Shown here: one piece after another, positions 5,519 through 26,531 of the stretch
Layout of the letters: every line of letters begins with the position of its first letter
How positions within the stretch are numbered: position 1 is the first letter of the stretch
Assembly: GCA_025349965.1 (NCBI GenBank)
Contig: CP075337.1
Span: 510,001 to 542,000 of the forward strand
From: Candidatus Saccharimonadota bacterium
GTDB lineage: Bacteria; Patescibacteriota; Saccharimonadia; Saccharimonadales; Saccharimonadaceae
Length of the DNA stretch: 32,000 nucleotides
Direction: 5' to 3'
Position numbers and translations under genes: made by a program
Notes under the pieces: generated by a model
Seen by the model: the letters and a program-made list of their open reading frames with translations, nothing else
The model's database searches: none
What the model was told of the DNA's origin: nothing

Positions 5519-6934
5519 ATGTCTCGCAATACAACTCTCGTCAAAAACACCCTCATCATCGCTATCGGCAAGATATCGACGCAATTCTTAACCTTCCTCC
5601 TTCTTCCGCTCTACACCGCGTACTTGTCCGTTGCTGAATTCGGCACAGTAGACCTCGCACTCACATATGTCGCGCTGCTCGTACCGCTTGCTATGCTTTC
5701 ACTAGAAATGGGGGTATTTCGCTTTCTTATCGATGCCCGCAAAAACGAAGGTGAGAAAAAACAAATTATCACCAATGCACTACATATCGTAGTACTCGGT
5801 GCACTCGTAGCAATCGCACTGTATCTTACGGTAAGCACGTTCATCACAATTCCTCACGGTGGGTATATCATTAGTGCAATCATAGCCATGATATTCTCGA
5901 ACTTCTTCCTACAAATAGCACGTGGTTTTGGTAATAATCTCCAGTTTGCTATTGGAGGTATTGTTACCGGTCTTGCAACAATTGCTGCAAACATCACCTT
6001 CATCGTATTCATGGGAATGGGTGCAGACGGCATGCTCCTTGCGGTTGCACTGGCGAATGCTATCGGGGCATTATATCTTATAGCAGCACTTCGCCTACAT
6101 AAGTATATTGGCATTGGGGCAGGGGATAGGACGCTAAAAAAGCAGCTCCTCAGATACTCAACACCTCTCATACCCAACGGTATCTCATGGTGGGTCATTA
6201 ACGCCGCCGACAGAACGATTATCACAATCATCCTCGGCGTTGCAGCAAATGGTATCTATGCGGTTGCATACAAGTTCCCGTTGATATTTAGTGGTCTTTT
6301 CTCATTCTTCGGTATGTCATGGACAGAATCAGCCTCAGTACATATTAATAGCCCTGACCGTGACAAATTCTTCTCCCAGACCATGAACGCAAGCATTAAG
6401 CTCTTTGGTGCATTTGGAGCACTCATTATTGCTGGTGTGCCTTTTATATTTGGACTATTTGTCAATCAAGAATTCGCCGAAGCCTACATGTATATACCAA
6501 TCCTTATTATCGGTGCATTCTTTAACTCTATCGTGGGACTCTATAGTGCCATATACATCGCAAAGAAACTTACAAAACAAGTGATGACAACTTCAATAAT
6601 GGCCGCAGTTATCAATATTAGTTTTACATTGGTATTCATTCACTTCATAGGCATTTATGCCGCTGCAATTGCTATGGGTGTAGCATTTCTCAGTATGGCA
6701 ATTTTCCGTCATTACGATATGAAGAAGTATGTGAATATTACATACGAGCGTGGGATTTTCTGGAAACTCGGGTTGCTTTACGTTATTGCCGCGACGGGCT
6801 ACTATATGAGTGATATTTGGACCGTCTTAGCTGGAGGTCTTTTAGTTGCAGCAGGATCAATAAGGATCAATCAGGGTATAGGGAGGGTTTTGATACAAAA
6901 AGTATTCAAAAAGTCCTCAGCTAATATTAATTAA
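5519..6934 (+). CDS. Wzx-type flippase (MOP/polysaccharide biosynthesis protein family)
   Basis: 471 aa, about 12-14 TM segments. The N-terminus LVKNTLIIAIGKISTQFLTFLLLPLYT is typical of Wzx/MOP exporters. It is the last gene of the glycan operon. Confidence 0.8.
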   Translation: MSRNTTLVKNTLIIAIGKISTQFLTFLLLPLYTAYLSVAEFGTVDLALTYVALLVPLAMLSLEMGVFRFLIDARKNEGEKKQIITNALHIVVLGALVAIALYLTVSTFITIPHGGYIISAIIAMIFSNFFLQIARGFGNNLQFAIGGIVTGLATIAANITFIVFMGMGADGMLLAVALANAIGALYLIAALRLHKYIGIGAGDRTLKKQLLRYSTPLIPNGISWWVINAADRTIITIILGVAANGIYAVAYKFPLIFSGLFSFFGMSWTESASVHINSPDRDKFFSQTMNASIKLFGAFGALIIAGVPFIFGLFVNQEFAEAYMYIPILIIGAFFNSIVGLYSAIYIAKKLTKQVMTTSIMAAVINISFTLVFIHFIGIYAAAIAMGVAFLSMAIFRHYDMKKYVNITYERGIFWKLGLLYVIAATGYYMSDIWTVLAGGLLVAAGSIRINQGIGRVLIQKVFKKSSANIN

Positions 6935-14716: not shown

Positions 14717-15397
14717 ATGACAGAACGGCTTAATAAATATTTAGCATTTCACCTCGGAGTCTCACGACGCGAGGCTGATTTGCTTATTGAGAAGGGGAGT
14801 GTTTGGGTAAACGGCACCGTCGCGACGCTTGGCGGCCGTCTCGAAACAGGTGATACTGTTACCGTGGATGGTACGATTGTTAAAGAAAAAGAAAATTACA
14901 CTTATCTTCTCTTTAATAAGCCTGCCGGATACGTCTCATCTCGCAAGCAACAAGGCGACAATCCAACACTTTATGATTTACTCCCAAAAGAATTTCACGA
15001 TCTCAAGCCAGTAGGGCGTCTTGATAAAGACAGTAGCGGACTTCTCATCCTCACCAATGACGGTGACTTTGCCTACGAAATGACCCACCCGAAGTTTTAT
15101 AAGATTAAGAATTATGAAGTATCCCTTGATAAACCACTTGAGCCACTTCACCAACAGATGATTAGTGATTACGGCATTGCGCTTGAAGATGGACCAAGCA
15201 AACTCAGCCTTGAACGCCGGAATGACGAGCGGACCGACTGGCTCGTGACCATGCATGAAGGCCGCAATCGACAGATCCGCCGCACGTTTGATACGCTGGG
15301 CTATAGTGTTACGGCATTGCACAGGATTAGCTTTGGACCGTATCTTATCGCTGAGTTAAAACCGGGTGAATTTAAAGCTAGCGAACGTCGTCTTTGA
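14717..15397 (+). CDS. Pseudouridine synthase, RsuA/RluB family (S4 domain plus catalytic domain)
   Basis: S4-like RLNKYLAFHLGVSRREADLLIEKGSVWVNG; catalytic GRLDKDSSGLLILTNDG; GRNRQIRRTF. Confidence 0.85.
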   Translation: MTERLNKYLAFHLGVSRREADLLIEKGSVWVNGTVATLGGRLETGDTVTVDGTIVKEKENYTYLLFNKPAGYVSSRKQQGDNPTLYDLLPKEFHDLKPVGRLDKDSSGLLILTNDGDFAYEMTHPKFYKIKNYEVSLDKPLEPLHQQMISDYGIALEDGPSKLSLERRNDERTDWLVTMHEGRNRQIRRTFDTLGYSVTALHRISFGPYLIAELKPGEFKASERRL

Positions 15398-15561
15398 GTT
15401 CGCCAAAATCAACATTCTCCTGTGTGTCTCATTATACGTTCCGATAGCAAACATACTCTTAACATATAAAAGATATGTGTTTTCTGATGACACAAAAAAA
15501 GAGTGGTGCTGAAATATTTTTCTCACTCAAACTGCTTACGCTCGCCAAAACCTCAAAACTA

Positions 15562-15570
15562 TGCTACAAT
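15562..15570 (+). promoter_or_regulatory. Extended -10 box TGCTACAAT, 10 nt upstream of the der ATG
   Basis: It sits inside the N-terminal extension of the listed ORF, which argues that the extension is not translated. Confidence 0.5.
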
Positions 15571-15580
15571 TACCTCTGTT

Positions 15581-16969
15581 ATGGCATCAAAACTACCAAC
15601 CGTTGCAATTATTGGACGAGCGAACGCAGGAAAAAGTTCGCTTTTTAACCGTTTCTTAAAGTCTCGTCAAGCAATTGTTGCGCGAGAAGCCGGAACAACT
15701 AGGGATAACGTCCTTGGAAAGGTGACCTATGGTGACCACCAGTTCTGGCTCGTTGACACTGCCGGCCTCAAAGACCCAAATGACGAATTTGAGGCATCTA
15801 TTCAAGATCAGATCGCCGAAGCTGCTGATGCCGCAGATGTTATTCTTGTTGTTACCGACAGCACTGAATACGTTGGCGACGAAGACCGCATCGTGGCAAA
15901 GAAGGCCCTAAGGAGCAAAAAGCCTGTCATCCTTCTCACTAACAAGTCAGACCTCAAAGAAAGCCTTCCAGTAGATGAATTCCGTCGCCTTGGTATTAAG
16001 GAAATCATCCCAACTAGTGCCGAGCACAACATCGGTATTCACGAAACACTTGAACGTGTTACTGAACTTATTCCCGCTAAAACTCAACAAGACCACGACG
16101 CCATTCGCGTCTCACTAATTGGCCGCCCAAACGTGGGGAAGAGCAATCTCTTCAACACTCTGGCGGGCAAGCAGCAAGCATTGGTTGCAAATATCGCCGG
16201 CACAACCCGTGATATCAACCGCGTTAAAGTAAAGTACAAAGGCGAATATATTGAGCTTCTCGACACTGCCGGCGTGCGCCGTCAAGGTAAGCAAGAAGTG
16301 GGCATTGAAAAGTTCAGCGTCCTCCGCACTCTTCAAGCAATTGAAGAATCTGATATCTGCTTCCTCCTCATGGATGTAAACGAGCTCAACACCCAGCTTG
16401 ATCAGCGCCTCGCTGGTATCATTAACGAAGCCGGCAAGGGAATGGTTATCGTTGTAAGCAAGTGGGATAGCGTCATGGATAAAGATGCCTTCACTCGTGA
16501 CGCACTCGCGCCACGCATCTCTCGTACTTTCGACTTCGTGCCATGGGTGCCACTCATCTTCACCAGCAGCGTTACCGGGCAAAATGTCTCAAAGCTTTTT
16601 GACCTCGTCCTTGAAATCCAAGAACGTCGCACCCAAGAGTTTAAGACTCGTAAGCTCAACGACCTTCTTCAAAAGACCGTTGCCCAACATCCACCTTCAG
16701 GGCTCAAGAACACCCATCCACGCCTTCGCTACATGGTACAAACAGACGTTTCGCCACCATGGTTTGTGATTTACGGAAGTAACCTCAAGTTTATTCACTG
16801 GAGCTATAAGCGTCACCTTGAGCGCGTCATGCGTGAAAACTTTGACCTTGTTGGGACCGCCATTAAGTTTAGCTTCCGCGACGAAAAGCAAATTAAGGCA
16901 AACCGCGAGAAGGAACGCCTTGCGGCAGAAAAGGCCCTCAAGCGAGCCGAAGCAGAAACTGAAAACTAA
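15581..16969 (+). CDS. der: Ribosome-associated GTPase Der/EngA (tandem G domains plus KH-like domain)
   Basis: GRANAGKSSLFN/DTAG/NKSD and GRPNVGKSNLFN/DTAG/SKWD. I chose the start at ATG 15581 (MASKLPTVAIIG), not the listed GTG 15503. Confidence 0.9.
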   Translation: MASKLPTVAIIGRANAGKSSLFNRFLKSRQAIVAREAGTTRDNVLGKVTYGDHQFWLVDTAGLKDPNDEFEASIQDQIAEAADAADVILVVTDSTEYVGDEDRIVAKKALRSKKPVILLTNKSDLKESLPVDEFRRLGIKEIIPTSAEHNIGIHETLERVTELIPAKTQQDHDAIRVSLIGRPNVGKSNLFNTLAGKQQALVANIAGTTRDINRVKVKYKGEYIELLDTAGVRRQGKQEVGIEKFSVLRTLQAIEESDICFLLMDVNELNTQLDQRLAGIINEAGKGMVIVVSKWDSVMDKDAFTRDALAPRISRTFDFVPWVPLIFTSSVTGQNVSKLFDLVLEIQERRTQEFKTRKLNDLLQKTVAQHPPSGLKNTHPRLRYMVQTDVSPPWFVIYGSNLKFIHWSYKRHLERVMRENFDLVGTAIKFSFRDEKQIKANREKERLAAEKALKRAEAETEN

Positions 16970-16970
16970 A

Positions 16971-17004
16971 AATATCGCCCCTGAAATTGGGGCGATATTT
17001 TTAA
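16971..17004 (+). terminator. Intrinsic terminator after der (the hairpin could also work on the opposite strand)
   Basis: 11-bp stem AAUAUCGCCCC/GGGGCGAUAUU with a 7-nt loop, followed by UUUUUAAC. Confidence 0.75.
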
Positions 17005-17057
17005 CTAAAAGAAAAAGGACTCACCCTCAGTCGCACGGAGCGACGAAAGGGGAGTCC
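17003..17057 (-). terminator. Intrinsic terminator of the minus-strand membrane-protein gene
   Basis: GGACUC/GAGUCC plus CCC/GGG outer stem and GUCGC/GCGAC inner stem (17017-17057). On the minus strand it is followed by UUUUUCUUUU. Confidence 0.6.
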
Positions 17058-17094
17058 AAGTTCTTGAGAGGGCGTATCATCATAGGCGAGCACC

Positions 17095-17466
17095 TTAGCG
17101 CGGCAATACGATGTTATTCGTGCGGCGAAGCATGACATCCCGGCACTGTCGCCGAAGGTGGATGAATCCGATCAGACAGATCGCAAACCCCATGATTCCT
17201 CCCACCAAAGCGAGTACAGAGAACACCAAGAAGATAACTCCGGTGGCCTCAACAACAGCAGCTCCAGCGATACCTGCAATGATCAAGATCACCACAGTGA
17301 GAACGGACAGCAATGTCGCATTTTCCGTCTCGCCCGCGAAAAGCCTCGGGTTCTTCGTCTTGTCCCGCGCACGATGCACGTGACGCATCAAGATGAGCAT
17401 CAAAACGACGAGTGCCAGAAAAAGCATCGACGCAACACCCATCATGACATAGCCGATCACGACCAT
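17095..17466 (-). CDS. Small integral membrane protein (3-4 TM), unknown function
   Basis: It is one of only two convincing minus-strand CDSs in the window (with 31201-31647). Hydrophobic segments VVIGYVMMGVASMLFLALVVLMLIL, LLSVLTVVILIIAGIAGAAVV and VIFLVFSVLALVGGIMGFAICLIGF. ATG 17466 is preceded by AAGGAAG, so I prefer it to the listed TTG at 17490. Confidence 0.6.
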   Translation of the reverse strand: MVVIGYVMMGVASMLFLALVVLMLILMRHVHRARDKTKNPRLFAGETENATLLSVLTVVILIIAGIAGAAVVEATGVIFLVFSVLALVGGIMGFAICLIGFIHLRRQCRDVMLRRTNNIVLPR

Positions 17467-17538
17467 AGTATCACTTCCTTTCAAGAACAAACCCTACATC
17501 ACAGCGATAAGGGGTATATTTACATTATATCATAATTA

Positions 17539-17547
17539 TGCTAATAT
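17539..17547 (+). promoter_or_regulatory. Extended -10 box TGCTAATAT, 6 nt upstream of ATG 17554 (leaderless configuration)
   Basis: Seen directly in the sequence; there is no SD. Confidence 0.5.
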
Positions 17548-17553
17548 TGCAAT

Positions 17554-18507
17554 ATGAGTAACGGCACAGAGCAATCACCCGAAACAGCCTTTTCCTCCAA
17601 ATCACGCTACGCCACTATTGAACGAAATAACGCAGAATCCTTTCTTTTTCACGAGCACCCACCCCTTGAAGTCATCCACTCACTTCACAGCATAGGTAAC
17701 TCTCGCGAACTTGGCGCCGTCGCCACTCGCACACTCCTTGCCGGCAACATGAGCCCTCTCAATGAGTACGGGCCAGTCCATCTTACACCAGAAGGGCGTG
17801 TTCACGACGCAAGGCGCAACGTTGCGGCCTTTCTCCACCAAAATAATATAGACCAGAAGCAAATACGCCTTCTCGCCCCAGAGCGCGACTACACCACGCC
17901 ACTCACCATCATCAACCTCGATACTATTTCACTCGAGCAAGATGACGCCCAACTTCTTCGGCCAGCAACAAAAGGCGACTTCATGTACACCCACAACGCC
18001 GAACTCGCTCTTGCCGTCCGTCCAGCTGATTGCCCAGTGGCATTTGTATCCGCCGAGACGCCAAAAGGGGAGGTGTCAGCACTTATTCACTTTGCATGGC
18101 TTGGTGTTGCACACGGGTACGTCACTCAAGCAAAAGAAGCTCTTAACTCCCTTGAAGTGAACTGGGAGAGTCTTCGCGTACGCCTTTCCGCCGGCGCGCA
18201 TGCTAAGTCGTATCGTTATACCAACTATCCAGAAGATCCTCGTGAAAAATTCCCCATCAGCGATGGACTCTTTGTTGATATCACACAAGGCAAAGAGGAT
18301 ACTACCTACAACTTTGCCATAGACGTTGCCGCCGCGGCCTATGAGGAAGTACTTAAGCACTGGGACATCACCCCGTACCAACTCTTTATGGACACCTCAG
18401 ACACCGCTGCACCAGAAGTGGGCTATTCGTCACACAGCCGTACCCACCAGCACTACCCGGTTGACGGCGAAAACTCCCGCGACCTTGTGGTAGCACGCCG
18501 CCCTTAG
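17554..18507 (+). CDS. YfiH/PgeF (DUF152, laccase-domain) family protein, with an N-terminal extension
   Basis: RPADCPVAFVS...ALIHFAWLGVAHGY resembles the ADC-P-V ... H-x-G-W-R-G core of the family, and the C-terminal GYSSHSR resembles the F-S-Y-R-R end motif. At 317 aa it is longer than typical members. Confidence 0.55.
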   Translation: MSNGTEQSPETAFSSKSRYATIERNNAESFLFHEHPPLEVIHSLHSIGNSRELGAVATRTLLAGNMSPLNEYGPVHLTPEGRVHDARRNVAAFLHQNNIDQKQIRLLAPERDYTTPLTIINLDTISLEQDDAQLLRPATKGDFMYTHNAELALAVRPADCPVAFVSAETPKGEVSALIHFAWLGVAHGYVTQAKEALNSLEVNWESLRVRLSAGAHAKSYRYTNYPEDPREKFPISDGLFVDITQGKEDTTYNFAIDVAAAAYEEVLKHWDITPYQLFMDTSDTAAPEVGYSSHSRTHQHYPVDGENSRDLVVARRP

Positions 18508-18520
18508 TATTATTAAAAGA

Positions 18521-19093
18521 ATGAAACTGATTCTCGCCCAAGGTAATCCCGAAAAACAGTACGAAACCACCCGTCATAATATTGGTTGGTTGGTGCTTGA
18601 TGCGTACGCAAAACACCTTGGCGCCACCTGGAAGCACGATAAAAAGCACGTGGCTGATATCGCGACAGCGGCTGTTAACGGAGAAAAGGTGCTCCTTGTT
18701 AAGCCACACACGTATTACAACGAGACGGGTCGAACCGCTCAAAGTCTGGTACAATTCTTCAAACTTATCCCACATACCGATGTGCTCGTATTACACGATG
18801 ACCTCGCGCTTCCATTTGGGACTATCAGAACACGAGAAAAGGGGAGTGATGCTGGTAATAATGGGATTAAAAGCCTTAACGCGCACCTTGGCCCCGACTA
18901 CGCGCGCATTCGACTTGGCGTCTGGAATGACCTCAAGCAACACATGGGCGATGCTGACTTCGTTCTGGCATCATTCTCAAAGGCAGAACAGGGGCAAATT
19001 ACTGATACAATCACCCCCGCTACACTCCCACTTATTGACGCCTTCATTCATAATTCCCTTGAGCCACAAAGCATACAGAGCTTACGCTTGTAA
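18521..19093 (+). CDS. pth: Peptidyl-tRNA hydrolase
   Basis: LILAQGNPEKQYETTRHNIGWLVLD, VLHDDLALPFGTIRTREKGSDAGNNGIKS. TATTAT (18508-18513) lies 7 nt before the ATG. Confidence 0.9.
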   Translation: MKLILAQGNPEKQYETTRHNIGWLVLDAYAKHLGATWKHDKKHVADIATAAVNGEKVLLVKPHTYYNETGRTAQSLVQFFKLIPHTDVLVLHDDLALPFGTIRTREKGSDAGNNGIKSLNAHLGPDYARIRLGVWNDLKQHMGDADFVLASFSKAEQGQITDTITPATLPLIDAFIHNSLEPQSIQSLRL

Positions 19094-19197
19094 AAACCTT
19101 CTTTTCGCCGTACCATAAGCGTACTCTTAGTTGAGCCCCATTCATCATGTTGAGCTCCTAAGGCGCAGCTTGACATCTTACTGAAAGTGAAAAGACA

Positions 19198-19635
19198 ATG
19201 GAACATGCAACGAGCCCGCCCGCGGGACATGATGCACGCATTGCGTTTATCGCGAAGTTGCCCGCAGACCTCATGCGGCGTACCGCAGGGATGGGCGTCT
19301 ACGCAAAGCGTCCGCTTTTCTTCCGTAAACGGAACGGCAAGCGTCGGCTGCAGTGGCTCCGCCCACTAGTCATGCACGAACCTGCCATCACACTCGATGG
19401 CAAAGATCGCCCCCTGTACTACCCGACGCTACTCCTCACCAAGCACAACACCTTCGTTCGTGGCGTCCTTCACGGCCGTCGCGTGCACTATTCGGCTATC
19501 GCAGCGAGCGAACTCACTGACGCCGAAGTCCGCAATCTCACCAGAGCAATCAGGGGAGAGTCCGGACTCCAAGATGCAGAATATCTCCGTATCGCCCGTC
19601 TTGGTGCGGTCGAATCTCTGAAGGATACATCATGA
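19198..19635 (+). CDS. Hypothetical protein (GC-rich islet A, gene 1)
   Basis: 145-aa ORF with G/C-rich third codon positions. Its stop overlaps the next start (ATGA). No recognisable motif. The start codon is uncertain because the SD is weak. Confidence 0.5.
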   Translation: MEHATSPPAGHDARIAFIAKLPADLMRRTAGMGVYAKRPLFFRKRNGKRRLQWLRPLVMHEPAITLDGKDRPLYYPTLLLTKHNTFVRGVLHGRRVHYSAIAASELTDAEVRNLTRAIRGESGLQDAEYLRIARLGAVESLKDTS

Positions 19636-20105
19636 ACACACCTCCGGATGACATCCGCTCATCTAACCTTAACGAGGCCGTGTCAGAGATTCTGTCACTG
19701 GCCGTAAGTCTCGGCATCACCGCCGCGCAAATGGACCCAGGCGGATACAATGCCTACAGGGCATTCCCTCCCGTCCCGCCAAGGGTGGTGCTCCATCCGT
19801 GGATGCTCGCATTCACCCCGTTCCTGCCAGCGGGTGGTGCCATCTGGGCAATGCAACAGCCTGTACGGCCGTTCGTTCTCGCATGGTACATCGGTACACA
19901 CAGGCTCATCGAGACAAGCCACTACTACGTGGCGGCTGATGGCGTGCTGTACGGATCTCAACTTCAACACCCCGTCAACGGGGAGGTCGAGGTCTTCCAG
20001 CTCACAGAGGATCTCCTTGGCATCATGCCCTGGGATGATCTCTACGGCCTGCTGATGCAAATGCGTGCTCAACGCGCATGGCAACTGCACTACCTCTCGG
20101 GGTAG
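19632..20105 (+). CDS. Hypothetical protein (GC-rich islet A, gene 2)
   Basis: 157-aa ORF translationally coupled to gene 1. N-terminal AVSLGITAAQM resembles a helix-turn-helix turn motif (weak). Followed by a terminator. Confidence 0.5.
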   Translation: MNTPPDDIRSSNLNEAVSEILSLAVSLGITAAQMDPGGYNAYRAFPPVPPRVVLHPWMLAFTPFLPAGGAIWAMQQPVRPFVLAWYIGTHRLIETSHYYVAADGVLYGSQLQHPVNGEVEVFQLTEDLLGIMPWDDLYGLLMQMRAQRAWQLHYLSG

Positions 20106-20141
20106 CACTGTCCGCTCTTCACCTACAGAAAGGAATCAAGA

Positions 20142-20174
20142 ATACCCGTCAGTAGTGGCGGGTATTTTTCTTTT
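20142..20174 (+). terminator. Intrinsic terminator of islet A
   Basis: AUACCCG/CGGGUAU 7-bp stem (20142-20148 with 20159-20165), 10-nt loop, then UUUUUCUUUU. Confidence 0.7.
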
Positions 20175-20176
20175 CC

Positions 20177-20222
20177 AAATAAAAAAGCGCCTACAGCAAG
20201 GGTGGGCATCGCTGTAGGCGCC
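20177..20222 (-). terminator. Strong intrinsic terminator on the minus strand
   Basis: 11-bp stem GCGCCUACAGC/GCUGUAGGCGC (20187-20197 with 20211-20221), 13-nt loop. On the minus strand it is followed by UUUUUUAUUU. Confidence 0.8.
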
Positions 20223-20492
20223 ATTTTACCCTTTAACCCACCCCGGAACATACCGGATGCAAAGCGTCGTCGACCTTGATCTCACATAGGTGCGCGCCTG
20301 AATGAACCTCGCAGAGTCTCATCCACTACTGGATAGTTGCAGATATATCCTTAAATTGGGTATCCGTCCGACCCCGAAGGGAAGAAGCGGCGTTAAAGGG
20401 GTTAGTAAATATGCAAAGCTGTCATTCTGAGGATAAAATCTTCAAAAAAGCGAGAAAAGTGGAGGGTAGGTACTTAAAACGCGCCTTGCATA

Positions 20493-20585
20493 CTACCTAA
20501 CATTGGCAGTACTATAAATAGTAACTACCGTTAGAAATAGGGGGTATAAGGTGCTTGATACAAGCGGGTTTGCTGTATCAATCAT
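20493..20585 (-). CDS. Possible leaderless 30-codon sORF (MIDTANPLVSSTLYPLFLTVVTIYSTANVR)
   Basis: The ATG begins 5 nt after the -10 box, and the stop TAG is at 20495-20493. There is no independent evidence that it is translated. Confidence 0.2.
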   Translation of the reverse strand: MIDTANPLVSSTLYPLFLTVVTIYSTANVR

Positions 20586-20590
20586 TTTTG

Positions 20591-20619
20591 ATTATAGCAC
20601 CTTGTTGACTATGTGTCAA
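20591..20619 (-). promoter_or_regulatory. Near-consensus sigma70-type promoter (TTGACA - 17 nt - TGcTATAAT)
   Basis: On the minus strand: TTGACA at 20619-20614, a 17-nt spacer, TG at 20599-20598 and TATAAT at 20596-20591. Confidence 0.7.
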
Positions 20620-20638
20620 TACTTTTTTGAGGGTAGAC

Positions 20639-21514
20639 ATGAATATAGGAAAAATCAATAGAATAAGTATAGTAAAAAATGGTTATGTTTCTAGGCTTAA
20701 AAACATACCTTCACCCCCGTTAGAACTCTATGTCGCAGGTACATTACCCGCCAAGAGACAGCTGACGGTGGCGATTATTGGGCCGCGCAAGCCGTCAGCG
20801 TATGGCAGGGAGGTCACGACACGTTTCACTTCGTTTCTTGCCAAGCACGGTGCCATTATTGTGAGCGGACTCGCTTTCGGCGTTGATAGCATTGCACATC
20901 AAGCAACCCTTGATGTGGGCGGCACTACAATCGCAGTACTCGCTAATGGTCTTCACCACGTTTATCCCGCCACCCATACGTCACTCGCCGAAGCAATTGT
21001 ACGAAGCGGGGGAGCGCTGCTCTCCGAAAAACCGCTCGGGTACGAAGTACGACGCCATGATTTCTTAGCACGGAACCGCCTCATTAGCGGCCTAGCGGAC
21101 GTCATATTCGTACCGGAGGCGACCGAAAAAAGCGGAACGCTCTCTACCGTTCAACACGCACTTGAGCAGGGAAAAGACGTCTTTGTCACGCCCGGCCCAA
21201 TTACAAGCCCGTATTCGGCTGGTTCCAACCGTCTCTTGCAACAAGGAGCACACGTTGCCCTCAAACCTGAAGATATATTGGAGTACAGTGCGCCAGAACT
21301 AGCATCCGAACTCACGCAGACCAAACTCCTTATTGGCGACACGCCACTTGAGACGGATATTCTGCGACTCATTCAAGCCGGCACACAGGATGGTGACACC
21401 ATTAGCAAGCAGGTGCAGGCACCACTCAATGAGTATCTCCAAGCTATTACCATGCTGGAGCTCAAAGGCGATATCCGTCCGTTAGGAGGAAATGTATGGG
21501 GGCTACGAAGCTAA
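20639..21514 (+). CDS. dprA: DNA-processing protein A (DprA/Smf)
   Basis: VAIIGPRKPSAYGREVT...IVSGLAFGVDSIAHQATL...RNRLISGLADVIFVPEATEKSGTLSTVQHALEQGKDVFV is the DprA Rossmann-like core. ATG 20639 is preceded by GAGGG, so I prefer it to the listed TTG 20627. Confidence 0.9.
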   Translation: MNIGKINRISIVKNGYVSRLKNIPSPPLELYVAGTLPAKRQLTVAIIGPRKPSAYGREVTTRFTSFLAKHGAIIVSGLAFGVDSIAHQATLDVGGTTIAVLANGLHHVYPATHTSLAEAIVRSGGALLSEKPLGYEVRRHDFLARNRLISGLADVIFVPEATEKSGTLSTVQHALEQGKDVFVTPGPITSPYSAGSNRLLQQGAHVALKPEDILEYSAPELASELTQTKLLIGDTPLETDILRLIQAGTQDGDTISKQVQAPLNEYLQAITMLELKGDIRPLGGNVWGLRS

Positions 21515-21549
21515 ACGACAGAGGTGAATACTAGACTTTTTAATGTAAA

Positions 21550-21560
21550 TGTGATATAAT
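21550..21560 (+). promoter_or_regulatory. Extended -10 box TGTGATATAAT upstream of islet B
   Basis: It implies a leader of about 90 nt containing the hairpin UAGUGG-GCAA-CCACUA (21588-21603) and AAGGAG (21645-21650). Confidence 0.5.
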
Positions 21561-21655
21561 TATATAGCTTAGTGTTGAGGCTCATAGTAGTGGGCAACCA
21601 CTAACGAACCTATCAACATTTTGCTTTCCCTATCCGTATCTCTAAAGGAGTCACA

Positions 21656-22087
21656 TTGAACGATACCATCGATAGCACTGTGCCCATCCGCATGGGCCAG
21701 AATACCTTCGGCACGCGGCTGGTGTACGCACTGGCAGCACTCGGAGTCACCGAGATCGATCGCAGCAATCGTCAGACGCTGGATGCGGCCTTTGTGTCCG
21801 CGTACCACAGCGTCGCGAGCGTGCTGGGCTACCCCGAACTCCGCAAGTTTGACTACTTGCTGGATCCGACCCATACATCCAACACAGTGGATGCCATCAT
21901 CCAAGGTTCGTGGTTCGGGTCGCTGGTCTTCGTGTCCAACGACAACCTCGGCCTCCTCTACATCACACGAGCGCTCACCCCGCACGATGCGATGAACCAC
22001 CTGATCGACGACGGAATGCCCGACATGTGGCTGGCCGCCGGTCATGCCTTCAAGGCGAACGTCGTCACGTACTCGAACCCCGTCTAA
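21656..22087 (+). CDS. Hypothetical protein (GC-rich islet B, gene 1)
   Basis: 143 aa. TTG start 5 nt after AAGGAG. Strong G/C bias at the third codon position. N-terminal LAALGVTEIDRS is an HTH-like motif (weak). Confidence 0.6.
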   Translation: MNDTIDSTVPIRMGQNTFGTRLVYALAALGVTEIDRSNRQTLDAAFVSAYHSVASVLGYPELRKFDYLLDPTHTSNTVDAIIQGSWFGSLVFVSNDNLGLLYITRALTPHDAMNHLIDDGMPDMWLAAGHAFKANVVTYSNPV

Positions 22088-22113
22088 CGCGAGGTCTTCA
22101 CTAAGGAGAATGT

Positions 22114-22596
22114 ATGGCACGAGGTAACGTAAGGAAGCGTCACCCCAAGCGCAAAAGCGCTTCCAAGCGACGCTCATCGGCACTCAGTACGCACGCGTTC
22201 ATCCTGTACCTCGCCTCGGCGTTGGTACTGCGAGGCACGCAGTGGGTGAGCAAGGAAAACCAGGTGACCCTCACGAGGGCCATCCAGGCAGCCTACGCAG
22301 TAGTCGCGGAAATGGCAGGTGATAGTGCACTTCGGTTCATTATCATTCCGCATCGTGTCCACGGCACCAGTGCCGACGTGGATGACATGATCGCCTACCT
22401 CCTGACACACTGGGCGCGCAAGGACAGGAACCGACACATCATCCATCTGGATACACTTCCCACGGATATCGCAGGGAAGTATCTGTCGGACCCTCAGGCG
22501 AAAAGCGAAGCAATGTGGCTCATCGCCGCCGATGCCTTCCTGGAAGTCATGAAAGAGGCGAACGCCGTTGGCTCGCGCATAGTCGCGCTGCGGTGA
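22114..22596 (+). CDS. Hypothetical protein with a very basic N-terminus (GC-rich islet B, gene 2)
   Basis: 160 aa. ATG 5 nt after AAGGAG (22103-22108). N-terminus MARGNVRKRHPKRKSASKRRSS. Followed by a 14-bp-stem terminator. Confidence 0.6.
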   Translation: MARGNVRKRHPKRKSASKRRSSALSTHAFILYLASALVLRGTQWVSKENQVTLTRAIQAAYAVVAEMAGDSALRFIIIPHRVHGTSADVDDMIAYLLTHWARKDRNRHIIHLDTLPTDIAGKYLSDPQAKSEAMWLIAADAFLEVMKEANAVGSRIVALR

Positions 22597-22619
22597 GAGG
22601 TTCGCACCGTTGATAGCCA

Positions 22620-22666
22620 AGGGGCTGTCGTGTAGTACCATACACGACAGCCCCTCTTTTCATTTT
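22620..22666 (+). terminator. Strong intrinsic terminator of islet B
   Basis: Perfect 14-bp stem AGGGGCUGUCGUGU/ACACGACAGCCCCU, 8-nt loop, then CUUUUCAUUUU. Confidence 0.85.
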
Positions 22667-22805
22667 CAACCCTAGTCAAAATAGAGCGGCGGTTTACAAA
22701 CGCAAATAACCCGTGTACACTGCAACCCTGTGTTCCGTTACCTATAGGTAATGCCGAAATGCGAAAAACAAAGCAACCATAAAGAACTTTTTAAGAAAAT
22801 AATTG

Positions 22806-22811
22806 TACACT
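22806..22811 (+). promoter_or_regulatory. -10 box TACACT (within TTGTACACT), 7 nt upstream of the topA ATG (leaderless configuration)
   Basis: There is no SD between the box and ATG 22819. The same TGTACACT octamer recurs at 22714-22721. Confidence 0.45.
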
Positions 22812-22818
22812 TATATAT

Positions 22819-25215
22819 ATGAGCAAAAATCTCGTCATCGTAGAGTCCCCAGCCAAAGCCAAGACTATTGAGAAATATCTTGGAAAAGAGTTCCACGTCC
22901 TCTCCAGCGTGGGGCATATTCGTTCTATTGCCAAAAAAACCAAAGATGGCACGCCACCAATTGACGTAAAGAACAATTTCAAAACAACCTATGAAATAGA
23001 TTCTGAAAAAAAGAAAACCATCACAGAGCTTAAAAAGGCAACCAAAGCAGCCGAAACCGTCTGGCTCGCAACCGATGAAGACCGCGAAGGGGAGGCGATT
23101 GCCTGGCACCTTTGCGAAGTCCTCGGTCTTGACCCTACAAAGACAAAGCGTATTGTTTTCCACGAAATTACCAAATCTGCTATTGAGGAGGCGGTAAAAA
23201 ACCCCCGCACTGTTGATATGCAACTCGTCCAGGCACAGCAAGCACGTCAAATTCTAGACCGTCTTGTAGGCTTTGAGCTCAGCCCTGTTGTCTGGCAAAA
23301 GGTCCCTGGCGGTAAATCTGCCGGGCGCGTGCAGTCACCAGCAGTCCGCCTTTTGGTCGAGCGCGAGCGTGAGATTCAAGCCTTTGAGGGTAACTTCCAA
23401 TTTAAGGTAACTGCTGAATTTACCCATGAGGGTGTCACCGTAAAAGCGGAACTCCCGCAACGCTTTGACACCGAAGAAGAAGCGCAAAAGTTCCTTGCCA
23501 GCCTTGAAGGTGCACAGTTCACTGTTTCCGATATCACCACCAGCCCATCTAAGCGCAATCCAGGCGCGCCATTTACGACCAGTACCCTTCAGCAGGAAGC
23601 CAACAGCAAGCTTGGCTTTGGTGCTCGTGCTACTATGTCCAGCGCGCAAAAGCTTTATCAGGCCGGTAAGATTACCTACATGCGTACCGATTCTGTCAAC
23701 TTGAGCGGTCAAGCACTTGCCGCAACTGCCGAGTACATCAAGAGTACTTTCGGTCCTGAATATTCAGAAGTGCGTAAATTCAAGACAAAGTCAGCCAGTG
23801 CACAGGAAGCCCACGAGGCAATTCGCCCAACTGATATGCGTCTTGAAAAGGGAAGTACTAATGAGTATGACCAAAAGCTTTACGACCTTATTCGTCGCCG
23901 CACTCTCGCCAGCCAAATGGCGCCAGCAAAGCTTGAAAAAACAACCGTCACTATCGCAATTAGCAGCTCCAACCTTGCTTTTGAAGCCAAGGGTGAAGTG
24001 GTGATTTTTGACGGATTCCTCAAAGTATATGGTGGTGGCAAGAAAGATCCAGACCTGCTTCCGGCACTTGCAACTAATGACACGCTCGGGCTTGAAACTG
24101 CCTCAGCTCGCCAAACCTTCAGCCGCCCACCAGCCCGCTTTACAGAAGGTTCACTAGTTAAAAAGCTTGAAGACCTCGGCATTGGCCGTCCATCAACCTA
24201 TGCAACAATTATTAACACCATTCAAGTCCGTGGTTACGCCGAAAAGGGTGAAGGTGAAGGGCAAGAGCGCGACGTTATCGTTCTTTCAACCGACGGCACT
24301 TCAGTTGAACGTGAAGTTGTGCAAGAAAAAACCGGTTCAGATAAGGGCAAGCTCGTCCCAACTTCTATTGGTATGATGATTGCCGACTTCCTCGGTGATC
24401 ACTTTGACCAAGTCATTGACTACGGTTTCACGGCAGATGTAGAAACCGAATTTGACCAGATTGCTACCGGTGCGCTTGCACGTAACGTCATGCTTGAGAA
24501 GTTCTACGAGCCCTTCCACAAGCTCATCGTCAATTCTGGTGGCATTGACCGCGCTCAAGTTGCTCAGGCAACACCCATCGGCAATGACCCAAAGACCGGC
24601 AAGATGATTTTCGCTCGTATTGGCCGGTTTGGCCCAATGCTTCAGCTTGGCGACGCTAAAAATCCAGATGGTACAGATGCAGACGAGAAGCCGCAGTTCG
24701 CCCCGATGCCAAAGGGCTTCCGTGTTGACACCGTCACACTTGAGGAGGCACTCAAGGCCTTCAAGCTCCCACGCCTTGTAGGCGAAACACCAGAAGGCTA
24801 CCCAATGAAGGCGAACATCGGCCGTTTTGGACCGTACATTCAGGTTGATAATCCAGAGACGAAGACGAAGCTCTTTATTAGCATCAAGCCGCTTGACCCG
24901 CACACCGTTACGCACGAGGAAGCGCTTCAATTCTACGCCGACAAGCTCAAGGCAGAGGCGGAGAAGAATATCGCTGACTTTGGCGATGGTATCAAGGTAT
25001 TGAATGGGCGATACGGCCCGTACGTCACCAACGGCACTAAAAACGCCAAGATTCCAAAAGATGTAGAGCCAAACGAAATCACCCACGAACAAGCCAAGGA
25101 AATGCTTGAAAAGGCGCCGGAGGCTAAGGGGCGGTTTGCGAAGCGCAAGACAGCCACAAAGAAGGCGCCGGCGAAGAAAGCGGCAACAAAGAAGCCGGCA
25201 GCGAAAAAGAAGTAG
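22819..25215 (+). CDS. topA: DNA topoisomerase I
   Basis: TOPRIM domain LVIVESPAKAKTIEKYLG...ATDEDREGEAIAWH; active-site Tyr context KITYMRTDS; three C-terminal GRFGP/GRYGP repeats; Lys/Ala-rich tail (KKAPAKKAATKKPAAKKK). Confidence 0.95.
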   Translation: MSKNLVIVESPAKAKTIEKYLGKEFHVLSSVGHIRSIAKKTKDGTPPIDVKNNFKTTYEIDSEKKKTITELKKATKAAETVWLATDEDREGEAIAWHLCEVLGLDPTKTKRIVFHEITKSAIEEAVKNPRTVDMQLVQAQQARQILDRLVGFELSPVVWQKVPGGKSAGRVQSPAVRLLVEREREIQAFEGNFQFKVTAEFTHEGVTVKAELPQRFDTEEEAQKFLASLEGAQFTVSDITTSPSKRNPGAPFTTSTLQQEANSKLGFGARATMSSAQKLYQAGKITYMRTDSVNLSGQALAATAEYIKSTFGPEYSEVRKFKTKSASAQEAHEAIRPTDMRLEKGSTNEYDQKLYDLIRRRTLASQMAPAKLEKTTVTIAISSSNLAFEAKGEVVIFDGFLKVYGGGKKDPDLLPALATNDTLGLETASARQTFSRPPARFTEGSLVKKLEDLGIGRPSTYATIINTIQVRGYAEKGEGEGQERDVIVLSTDGTSVEREVVQEKTGSDKGKLVPTSIGMMIADFLGDHFDQVIDYGFTADVETEFDQIATGALARNVMLEKFYEPFHKLIVNSGGIDRAQVAQATPIGNDPKTGKMIFARIGRFGPMLQLGDAKNPDGTDADEKPQFAPMPKGFRVDTVTLEEALKAFKLPRLVGETPEGYPMKANIGRFGPYIQVDNPETKTKLFISIKPLDPHTVTHEEALQFYADKLKAEAEKNIADFGDGIKVLNGRYGPYVTNGTKNAKIPKDVEPNEITHEQAKEMLEKAPEAKGRFAKRKTATKKAPAKKAATKKPAAKKK

Positions 25216-25236
25216 CGACAAGTCAAATTGAGTCGA

Positions 25237-25268
25237 GGACGGCAGCCATGCTGTCCTTTTCTCTTTAC
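25237..25268 (+). terminator. Intrinsic terminator after topA
   Basis: GGACGGC/GCUGUCC 7-bp stem (one G-U pair), loop AGCCAU, then UUUUCUCUUU. Confidence 0.7.
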
Positions 25269-25383
25269 AAAACACCCCGAAACCATAACCAACTTAAATC
25301 CAAACCACTATCTTCAAAACTCGTCGAATTTATGGTACAATAGTCCGAGAATTATGGTACTATAAGGTAACCATACAAAGTCT

Positions 25384-25412
25384 TTGACATTATTTACATA
25401 ATCTTGTATAAT
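25384..25412 (+). promoter_or_regulatory. Consensus sigma70-type promoter (TTGACA - 17 nt - TATAAT)
   Basis: TTGACA at 25384-25389 and TATAAT at 25407-25412. The listed TTG start (25404) of the downstream ORF lies inside this promoter. Confidence 0.7.
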
Positions 25413-25478
25413 GATATTAAAGAAGAAAATAGTAACTTAATTAATCCTCCTCGGGTGCGGCAGGAAGAAAGACGGAAA

Positions 25479-26531
25479 ATGACCGAAACAGCTGAAACAA
25501 CGCCAACAATTGACCTCGCCACAGGTGTAAATGATATTATTTCCCTTATTGACCAAGAGCGCGAGCGTGAAATTGTTACTCGTCGTTTCGGACTGTATGA
25601 GCGTCGCGAAACTCTCGAGCAAATTGGTGAGCTCCTTGGTATCACCCGTGAGCGTGTCCGTCAACTTGAGAAAGCCATTCTTGTACGCCTCAAGTCCGCA
25701 GCAGAGAAGGGCGAAACCGACACTGTTACACAACTTGAGAAGGTATTCATCCGCACCCTTAGTGAAATGGGCCGCGCTGCCCGCGTACAGGACCTCGCTG
25801 ACAAGCTTTATGGTCGCACCACTAATCTCCAAGAACGTGCCCACGTTGCCTTTATCGCAACTCTTGCGCCGAGCCTTACCGTGCTTGATGAGAATGACAG
25901 CTACTACCAATCCATTGCACACTCTGACTACGGTGACCAAAAGAAGCTTAAGAGCCGCGTTGATGAAATCGTTGCCACTATTAAGACCGGTAAAGTTCCG
26001 CAAACTGTTGACCAACTCTTTGACAAGCTTAGCTATGAGCATCCATCACAAGTTGCCGCCCTTGCAAGCATGAGCAAGCTTCTTGCGCACCTCAAAGACA
26101 CCTGGGGTCTTGCAAAGTGGCCAACCGTTAACCCAAAGAACATCCGCGACAAGATTTATGTTGTGCTCGCGGAAAACGGCAAGCCAATGCACTTTTCAGA
26201 CATTGCTGATGCTATCAAGGAAAGCTCATTCAAGCGCAAGGATGTCACCACACAGGCAATCCACAACGAACTTATTAAAGACAAGCGCTTCGTGCTTATT
26301 GGCCGTGGTATTTACGCCCTTGATACTTGGGGATACAGCAAGGGAACGGTCAGTGACATCATCGTTGATGTACTCAAGAAGGCAGGAGAGCCACTTCATC
26401 GCGATGAAATCGTTAAGCGCGTACTTGATAGCCGCCAGGTAAAAGAAACGACTATCCTCCTCAATCTACAGAGCAAGCCACTCTTCAAGCGTGTTGCAAA
26501 AGCGACATACGAACTCGCAGAAGCAGCCTAG
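25479..26531 (+). CDS. Sigma-70 region-4-like HTH protein with C-terminal HARE-HTH/winged-helix modules
   Basis: REIVTRRFGLYERRETLEQIGELLGITRERVRQLEKAILVRLK is sigma region 4. The two HARE-HTH-like modules are KIYVVLAENGKPMHFSDIADAI...FVLIGRGIYALDTWGY and IVDVLKKAGEPLHRDEIVKRVL...FKRVAKATYELAE. No sigma region 2 is recognisable. I chose the start at ATG 25479. Confidence 0.7.
   Translation: MTETAETTPTIDLATGVNDIISLIDQEREREIVTRRFGLYERRETLEQIGELLGITRERVRQLEKAILVRLKSAAEKGETDTVTQLEKVFIRTLSEMGRAARVQDLADKLYGRTTNLQERAHVAFIATLAPSLTVLDENDSYYQSIAHSDYGDQKKLKSRVDEIVATIKTGKVPQTVDQLFDKLSYEHPSQVAALASMSKLLAHLKDTWGLAKWPTVNPKNIRDKIYVVLAENGKPMHFSDIADAIKESSFKRKDVTTQAIHNELIKDKRFVLIGRGIYALDTWGYSKGTVSDIIVDVLKKAGEPLHRDEIVKRVLDSRQVKETTILLNLQSKPLFKRVAKATYELAEAA

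Follow-up and report, generated by a model that had tools for sequence, protein, structure and literature searches.

A Probable New Family of Large Structured RNAs Encoded Next to dprA in Saccharibacteria

Introduction

Among the described systems closest to the RNA treated here, OLE and the raiA-motif RNA are large lineage-restricted bacterial noncoding RNAs (ncRNAs); the action of OLE is only partly understood and the function of the raiA-motif RNA is unknown. RsaE/RoxS and RNAIII are regulatory RNAs of the Firmicutes that have C-rich loops. The subject of this report is an RNA gene on the minus strand of a 32,000-nucleotide (nt) stretch of a Candidatus Saccharimonadota genome (assembly GCA_025349965.1, contig CP075337.1, positions 510,001 to 542,000), which we call the window and whose coordinates are used below. 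The gene sits inside a gap without coding sequence (20106-20638) upstream of dprA. A preliminary description of this DNA had suggested that a structured orphan RNA with its own transcription unit, one that fits no assigned class, is encoded at this place. The lack of any Rfam match, the conservation, the covariation and the absence of a conserved open reading frame (ORF) all support that proposal. It is very probable that we are dealing with a genuine new ncRNA family, which is noncoding, highly structured and has its own transcription unit. Taken as a whole, the best explanation is that the locus encodes a new Saccharibacteria-restricted class of large structured RNA, which has two domains and acts through its fold; we put the probability of this reading at about 80%.

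The RNA is the first lineage-specific RNA candidate for the ultrasmall epibiotic Saccharibacteria (TM7). These organisms belong to the Patescibacteria, or Candidate Phyla Radiation (CPR), which make up a very large part of bacterial diversity and whose biology is mostly unknown. According to a 2022 preprint on the Saccharibacteria transcriptome, no small RNA has been validated in TM7x (bioRxiv 2022.03.25.485537), and ncRNAs are mentioned neither in a transposon-sequencing (Tn-seq) paper in Cell in 2023 (PMC10633639) nor in a 2024 perspective (PMC11665869).

Conservation and Distribution

Loci were first fetched through DprA alone, from GTDB species representatives, and were then searched by nhmmer with the window RNA. 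In every Saccharibacteria locus there was a match on the antisense strand directly upstream of dprA; for example, the RNA of Nanosynbacter sp. TM7-087 matched with E = 4e-23 though its DprA is only 47% identical. Of the GTDB species loci from Saccharibacteria, all 21 with sequence upstream of dprA have a full-length copy, and so do nine more DprA-retrieved loci (our handles L081, L084, L085 and L206-L211). The last six of these were fetched only by DprA identity, and 6/6 carry the RNA. A scan of metagenome contigs, with a pattern that contained the G-tract and terminator-loop motif described below, added at least 120 loci, of which at least 104 are full-length copies. Overall, at least 129 full-length homologs were collected, with lengths of 246-551 nt (median 335). 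Conservation in relatives is strong, and in the closest one (L081) the RNA is 93.6% identical as compared with 67.5% for dprA at the nucleotide level.

The linkage to dprA is also well preserved. The gene is divergently adjacent in 85 of the 98 motif-retrieved contigs with room upstream, among the matches listed, and in some of the remaining contigs dprA is a few hundred nt further off or a more divergent DprA-like gene is present. The outer flanks of the RNA-dprA pair vary between relatives. A conserved protein partner nearby was considered and rejected, because the flanking genes differ; the ORF downstream of dprA (22114-22596) is common to L081 only.

Covariance models of the 5' and 3' parts each have a single match in the window, at this locus, and the RNA gene is single-copy. 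At E<=0.01 neither model matched anything beside dprA in a set of ten further loci, of which eight belong to other CPR lineages and the remaining two are the bacterial locus L029 and L030, and the first nhmmer pass over 80 DprA loci gave no match outside Saccharibacteria-type loci. With filters off, both models produced only noise-level scores in five to eight CPR dprA loci, L030 excepted; the E-values of the covariance models are rough, and alignments of the variable 3' region are imperfect. L030 represents a deep Saccharibacteria lineage (DprA 40% identical) and gives weak, correctly placed matches to both models. Read directly, its positions 5620-5890 (minus strand) show a promoter of consensus type, the GUACCU sequence and a long P3 (helices are named as in Table 1). 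There is also a hairpin loop with ACCCUCC at its end, and P4 is rewritten as CCCUUUCAUG/CAUGAAAGGG; the G-tract and the CCCACCC terminator loop are both missing. A plasmid or phage origin found no backing in PLSDB or INPHARED (no blastn match) or in a motif scan of IMG/VR, which was empty. As far as these loci allow one to judge, the family appears to be limited to Saccharibacteria and apparently universal across them.

Folding and Coding Potential

The 408-nt stretch folds with a minimum free energy of -139.4 kcal/mol, as compared with -107.0 +/- 5.7 kcal/mol in dinucleotide shuffles (z = -5.7), and none of 100 shuffles is as stable. There is no ORF of at least 60 amino acids (aa) between promoter and terminator, as the preliminary description had noted, and the longest frames there have 42 aa. 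A 30-codon frame (20585-20493) does open with AUG at the predicted start of transcription. However, only 13 of 118 distinct homologs have this start codon, and the frame is broken by stops in relatives L005, L004, L111, L115, L189 and others. ORF lengths in the homologs are the same on the two strands (medians of 36 aa and 33.5 aa), none of the homologous loci carries an intact longer ORF, and substitutions track base pairing rather than codons.

Public gene calls place spurious small ORFs over the RNA gene. Examples are L081 5855-5947 (30 aa), L210 1164-1367 (67 aa) and L211 985-1125 (46 aa).

Secondary Structure

The features of the RNA are collected in Table 1. The molecule has two domains. 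The 5' domain consists of P1, a single-stranded linker and a long P3, at the tip of which is a hairpin with ACC(C)UCC at the end of its loop. The second domain, at the 3' side, is closed by P4, contains a core of H7, H8, H9 and P5 together with variable peripheral hairpins, and ends in the terminator hairpin.

Table 1. Coordinates of the promoter, the predicted transcript and the structural elements of the RNA
Feature	Position	Strand	Remarks
Promoter	20591..20619	-	-35 TTGACA 20619-20614; 17-nt spacer; extended -10 TGcTATAAT 20599-20591
Predicted primary transcript	20181..20585	-	About 405 nt; start inferred at A20585, 6 nt past the -10; end in U-tract
P1, 5'-terminal hairpin	20553..20583	-	GAUUGAUACAG...CUUGUAUCAAGC; both-side changes at 7/7 pairs in 76 homologs; 91.9% of cells paired
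Single-stranded linker	20530..20554	-	GCACCUUAUACCCCCUAUUUCUAAC; near-invariant columns in 70 sequences
P2, optional inserted hairpin	20505..20529	-	GGUAGUUACUAUUUAUAGUACUGCC; clean insertion, present or absent among homologs
P3, 5' strand	20483..20501	-	GUUAGGUAGUAUGCAAGGC; pairs with 20419-20401; both-side changes at 14/15 pairs; 98.4% of cells paired
P3a hairpin	20450..20482	-	GCG..AAGU / ACUU..CGC; invariant ACCCUCC (20467-20461) is the 3' end of loop ACCUACCCUCC (20471-20461)
P3b, variable hairpin	20420..20449	-	Makes P3 a three-way junction; length varies; absent in short forms
P3, 3' strand	20401..20419	-	GCUUUGCAUAUUUACUAAC; GUUAG variants covary with the 3' partner
P4, 5' strand	20392..20400	-	CCCUUUAAC; long-range helix closing the 3' domain
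Lineage-variable hairpins	20341..20391	-	Include CCC-UUCG-GGG 20372-20381; replaced or absent in relatives
3'-domain conserved core	20259..20340	-	H7, H8, H9, P5
H7	20340-20338 with 20261-20259	-	Both-side changes at 3/3 pairs
H8	20336-20326	-	Both-side changes at 2/4 pairs
H9	20324-20300	-	Contains CUCUGCGAGGUU; both-side changes at 7/7 pairs
P5	20298-20292 with 20270-20263	-	GGCGCGC; both-side changes at 2/7 pairs
G-tract	20238..20243	-	GGGUGG; directly 5' of the P4 3' strand; perfect complement of 20205-20200
P4, 3' strand	20229..20237	-	GUUAAAGGG; partner of 20400-20392
P7, intrinsic terminator hairpin	20186..20222	-	Loop GAUGCCCACCCUU 20210-20198; CCACCC 20205-20200; U-tract to 20178

The 5' covariance model was made from 21 seeds, and 76 homologs were aligned to it. 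In this domain 96.4% of the pair cells are canonical, as compared with 71.2% after shuffling, and sliding the partners gives 45% or less; both-side changes occur at 21 of the 22 pairs, and RNAalifold agrees with the structure. G-U pairs are frequent, for instance GU:31 and UG:33 at single pairs of P3 and P4, respectively, and fit the minus strand only. The stem of P3a is usually AAGU/ACUU, and variants such as UAGU/ACUA, CAGU/ACUG and ACGU/ACGU preserve the pairing. The unpaired parts are conserved as well. ACC(C)UCC is present on the 3' side of the P3a loop in all 118 distinct homologs and in L030. In the linker, GYACCU is common to all clades and the divergent clade retains GCACCUAAAUAA, whereas the ACCCCC of the main clade is not kept there.

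The pentamer CUAAC occurs twice (20530-20535 and 20401-20405), and each copy is able to pair with GUUAG at 20501-20497. A P2 helix formed from the 5' CUAAC and GUUAG was considered and rejected, since the GUUAG variants covary with the 3' CUAAC at the base of P3; covariation backs the 3' copy only. The 5' copy is conserved too, and an alternative pairing may be possible.

The window-type 3' domain has 46 pairs, and 97.5% of its cells are canonical as compared with 87.4% after shuffling and at most 48.5% when slid; both-side changes are found at 20 of the 46 pairs, and the terminator stem P7 has them at six of its ten. P4 is paired in all 53 full-length homologs aligned by the covariance model, one of its positions being UA:46, CG:4 and AU:3. 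The core of this domain is constant, but the peripheral hairpins come and go, and so, its length varies between 115 and 256 nt among homologs; the smallest 3' domains have 115-124 nt.

Compensatory changes are seen in P1, P3, P4, four 3'-domain helices and the terminator stem. Of the helices that had been suggested from the single sequence, the hairpin at the extreme 5' end corresponds to P1, and the GGAUGAG...UUCAUUC hairpin to H9. The 9-nt long-range complement, which had looked only weakly significant, is P4 and is rewritten with its pairing intact in L030. Two other hairpins, CCC-UUCG-GGG and UCCGG...CCGGG, do exist but lie in lineage-variable parts of the molecule.

A further contact is predicted between the G-tract and the loop of the terminator hairpin. 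The loop is invariant at its CCCACCC core, and the duplex of the G-tract with the complementary loop segment is worth -17.3 kcal/mol. Both motifs are present in 30/30 DprA-retrieved loci (the 21 from GTDB and the nine others), which were collected without reference to the motif. In a clade from gut and rumen the G-tract is located elsewhere, in GAGGUGGGUC within the 3' domain, and the loop is unchanged. The G-tract and the CCCACCC loop are co-present in all other homologs and co-absent in L030, which supports a pseudoknot. We would give even odds that GGGUGG pairs with the CCACCC of the terminator loop in this way. If it does, P4 and the terminator would be held together by it as a compact 3' module that resists nucleases.

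Transcription Signals and Gene Neighborhood

The gap that contains the RNA gene had been described as the largest noncoding one in the window, and this holds. Between plus-strand genes the only other stretch of more than 270 nt is 16969-17554, and it contains a minus-strand ORF that is a called gene in L081 too. The promoter and the terminator named in the preliminary description are likewise as claimed. The promoter has 12 of 12 consensus positions plus the TG of an extended -10, and only two such perfect sites are present in 15000-26000. The terminator, which was read directly and folded, has an 11-bp GC-rich stem (20221-20211 with 20197-20187) and a 13-nt loop and is followed by U6AU3. In the homologs TTGACN, a 17-nt spacer and TGnTAnnnT recur, the 17 nt and the TG being found together in 85 of 91 parsed promoters; a promoter pattern, however, helped to delimit the homologs. 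A palindrome, TTGAC-N5-GTCAA (20605-20619), overlaps the -35 and is found in 48 of 95 distinct homolog promoter regions. A dimeric regulator, perhaps one of the CRP/FNR type, may use it as an operator common to the RNA and dprA.

The ATG of dprA is at 20639 and is preceded by the ribosome-binding site (RBS) GAGGG. The -35 of the RNA gene is about 20 nt away from it and the predicted RNA start (20585) about 53 nt. A sigma-70-type dprA promoter was not detected in the short spacer 20620-20640. Either dprA has a promoter that overlaps the RNA gene, or it depends on a different sigma factor or on an activator. The strict divergent linkage, the short spacing, the lack of a dprA promoter and the palindrome together suggest a shared control region and a possible link to DNA uptake or recombination.

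In order, the neighbors of the RNA unit are Der/EngA, a Cu-oxidase_4 family protein, Pth and two ORFs without a Pfam match; beyond the RNA unit are DprA, two small ORFs, TopA and a Sigma70_r4/HARE-HTH protein. The named relatives of the window DprA are Candidatus Microsaccharimonas or Saccharimonadaceae, which places the window on a Saccharibacteria chromosome. The two ORFs without a Pfam match (145 and 157 aa, with overlapping ends) occupy 19198-20105, a segment that is locally GC-rich (56%). Relatives have different genes between pth and the RNA, and so, this slot is a variable region. A hairpin, AAUACCCGUCAGUAGUGGCGGGUAUUUUUCUUUU at 20135-20170 on the plus strand, is the terminator of the convergent gene 19632-20105 and stands back-to-back with the RNA terminator. 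Another hairpin, a perfect one of 15 bp at 22620-22655, follows the ORF 22114-22596; flanked by a T-run on either side, it resembles a bidirectional terminator. The second 12/12 promoter of the region (25384-25412, plus strand) is just upstream of the Sigma70_r4 and HARE-HTH ORF (25404-26531) and overlaps its listed TTG start; therefore, the true start of this ORF must be further downstream.

Searches for Known RNA Families

None of the 4227 families in Rfam 15 has a match at gathering score anywhere in the window. At E<=10, the locus and the distant homologs L005 and L007 gave only weak, terminator-shaped noise, which at the locus is due to the two terminators, including the hairpin at 20135-20170. 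Ten related loci (125 kb) searched at gathering score contained one unrelated tRNA only, and ARAGORN found no tRNA or transfer-messenger RNA (tmRNA) in the window.

The hallmarks of the housekeeping RNAs had been looked for in the single sequence before and not found, and the 118 homologs, the structure and Rfam agree. For RNase P RNA, the models RF00010 and RF00011 have no match at gathering score or at E<=10 in the window, L005 or L007, the conserved region I (CR-I) sequence AGGAAAGUCC is in 0/118 homologs with at most one mismatch, and a terminal P1 is not formed; instead, the 5' end is a local covarying hairpin and the 3' end a terminator. The T-loop motif of tmRNA is likewise in 0/118 with at most one mismatch, there is no CCA near the 3' end, and the frame GCA CCU UAU... 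is not conserved. Signal recognition particle (SRP) RNA has no model match at E<=10, and its helix-8 motif is exact in 0/118 homologs and present with one mismatch in 1/118. Rfam gives no match for 6S RNA; the structure has two multi-branched domains, its ends do not pair with each other, and it is no single rod with a central bubble.

Cis-regulatory leaders fare no better. The downstream gene in the window is convergent, and among relatives the downstream genes vary in identity and orientation; the T-box motif is absent from the 118 homologs, and no cis-regulatory family of Rfam matched above noise. The models of OLE, GOLLD, ROOL, HEARO and raiA in Rfam 15 have no match, and the present RNA was not found on viral contigs. 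We file the RNA as a new family because the comparisons that could be run placed it in none of the known ones and full-text literature searches returned no description of it.

Possible Functions and Alternative Explanations

An RNA that is kept in every sampled Saccharibacterium, in organisms with about 700-1000 genes, points to a function that is probably important, because it is 250-550 nt long, outconserves the adjacent protein gene and has a core of many helices. A consensus promoter with an extended -10 would lead one to expect high abundance. We propose that the RNA would act in trans and that its fold in three dimensions would most likely make it a partner or scaffold for some conserved cellular machine. 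The best candidate contact would be the exposed ACC(C)UCC loop, since it has CCUCC, the anti-Shine-Dalgarno (anti-SD) core of 16S rRNA, and its G-rich partners may be mRNA RBSs, a G-rich RNA or a protein. That the RNA works through its fold or as a ribonucleoprotein (RNP) has, in our estimate, a chance slightly short of even. It is a bolder and rather improbable step to make it an essential phylum-specific housekeeping RNA, that is, an RNP subunit or a ribozyme that would set Saccharibacteria apart from other bacteria and is possibly tied to translation, by way of the anti-SD-like loop, or to the machinery of DNA uptake and recombination beside which it is encoded.

Several points weigh against our reading or against parts of it. 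The evidence for a transcript, for its ends and for its abundance consists of sequence signals, and the absence from other lineages covers dprA neighborhoods only. The invariance of the G-tract and the loop rests on the 30 DprA-retrieved loci, because the metagenome set was retrieved by those very motifs; covariation is silent on the pseudoknot because neither strand varies in the main family, and in another fold, proposed by RNAalifold, P4 is longer and includes part of the G-tract. With 26 RBS regions from the window, the duplexes of the ACC(C)UCC loop have a mean energy of -5.5 kcal/mol, as compared with -4.1 kcal/mol for random windows (standard deviation 3.1), and many window genes have no SD sequence. 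Since the loop binds RBSs hardly better than random windows and many genes lack an SD sequence, a simple global model of RBS pairing is unsupported. The best of the 26 duplexes (-14.5 kcal/mol) is that of CUACCCUC in the loop (20461-20468) with the dprA RBS GAGGGUAG (20626-20633). The dprA RBS was rejected as a target, as this complementarity is not conserved in other loci and is probably due to chance.

These pairing data also bear on the idea that we are looking at a regulator that works by base pairing in the manner of RsaE/RoxS or RNAIII, the C-rich motifs of which would bind the SD regions of several mRNAs and repress translation, with the rest of the molecule serving for stability. The RNA does have three conserved C-rich motifs that are unpaired, one of them in the loop of the terminator, where RoxS and RNAIII have one too, and the anti-SD core in a loop that finds its best window duplex at the dprA RBS would suit such a role. 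However, more than 40 conserved base pairs and a multi-helix core are far beyond the needs of a small RNA that works through a seed, one of the three motifs (the ACCCCC of the linker) is lost in the divergent clade, the RBS set does not stand out from random windows, the dprA complementarity is unconserved, and Rfam has no match of the RsaE/RoxS type. This would be a possible but doubtful explanation. We consider it very unlikely that the conserved element is a cis-acting or antisense element of dprA that has a functionless RNA product and controls expression of this competence gene, be it through divergent transcription, through an operator used by both genes or by overlapping a dprA promoter or 5' untranslated region that escaped detection. 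The strict divergent linkage over deep divergence while outer neighbors change would be expected of such an element, as would the close spacing to dprA, the lack of a sigma-70-type dprA promoter and the palindrome over the -35. Yet the structure is selected over its whole length, with compensatory changes 100-400 nt from dprA, G-U pairs and an invariant terminator loop, and a role as a shared control region is compatible with a function in trans. Moreover, dprA made no significant fitness contribution in the Tn-seq of Southlakia (PMC10633639); conservation that depends on dprA is therefore disfavored, since the RNA is more conserved than dprA itself.

An extremely diverged RNase P, tmRNA, SRP or 6S RNA that the standard models miss is slightly less probable again. 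This idea draws on the Prokaryotic Genome Annotation Pipeline, which lists only two ncRNAs in a complete Nanosynbacter genome (PMC8830319), on the RNase P RNAs of CPR bacteria, which are diverged and known to score below Rfam thresholds (PMC8172020), and on the size range, the core with peripheral helices and the near-rRNA level of conservation, which recall RNase P. The same CPR study nevertheless recovered the RNase P RNAs with RF00010, including those of two circular Saccharimonadia genomes (PMC8172020), and our three divergent members had no RNase P, tmRNA, SRP or 6S match at E<=10. The empty ARAGORN result, the local 5' hairpin and terminator 3' end, which leave no terminal P1 or closing stem, and the absence of CR-I, the T-loop, the SRP helix-8 motif and a CCA end from the 118 homologs all argue in the same direction. 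There is next to no chance that the locus specifies an mRNA for a hydrophobic protein of about 30 aa, translated from a leaderless AUG at 20585, or that it is a decayed longer gene. The AUG at the predicted start, the 30-codon frame behind it and the small ORFs annotated here in some assemblies would fit an mRNA, but the rarity of the start codon, the interrupted frame, the equal ORF lengths on both strands and the changes that follow pairing do not.

Conclusions

If the tentative housekeeping role is true, the RNA would be a new member of a very short list of near-universal functional RNAs, and one for a whole phylum. TM7x and Southlakia can be cultivated with their hosts and take up DNA by natural transformation, and Tn-seq and RNA-seq data exist for them already, so the RNA is directly testable. 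The covariance model of the family is usable for genome annotation and clears the spurious small ORFs over the locus.

Of the known systems, class A RNase P RNA is like this RNA in its 250-550 nt, its core with clade-specific peripheral helices, its long-range helix, its likely pseudoknot and its very high conservation; the Saccharibacteria RNA differs in having no terminal P1, none of the CR-I to CR-V sequences and no RF00010/RF00011 match. With 6S RNA it shares a predicted abundance, a stand-alone gene and a strong sigma-70 promoter, but it is far more conserved in primary sequence than 6S RNAs are. RsaE/RoxS and RNAIII are like it in that they have several unpaired C-rich motifs, of which one is in the loop of the terminator, and are orphan units, each with its own strong promoter. 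Where a C-rich-seed RNA would have at least two such motifs, the present one has ACC(C)UCC (118/118), CCCACCC and, in the main clade, ACCCCC. RNAs of the RsaE/RoxS type have about 100 nt and few helices, whereas this family has 246-551 nt and at least nine conserved helices; it is 3-4x larger, has no model match, and combines a multi-helix core with one C-rich loop that has an invariant internal complement. By analogy, an invariant core with clade-specific peripheral helices is the pattern of a ribozyme or RNP scaffold and not that of a seed-pairing small RNA.

The resemblance to OLE and the raiA-motif RNA is of another kind. The Saccharibacteria RNA is set apart from them by its host lineage, which is neither Firmicutes nor Actinobacteria, by its partner dprA, by a terminator hairpin within the conserved fold and by the lack of an Rfam 15 match. 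Like them, it is hundreds of nt long, has many covarying helices and conserved unpaired nucleotides, is confined to one lineage, has a habitual gene neighbor and is predicted to be made as a transcript of its own.

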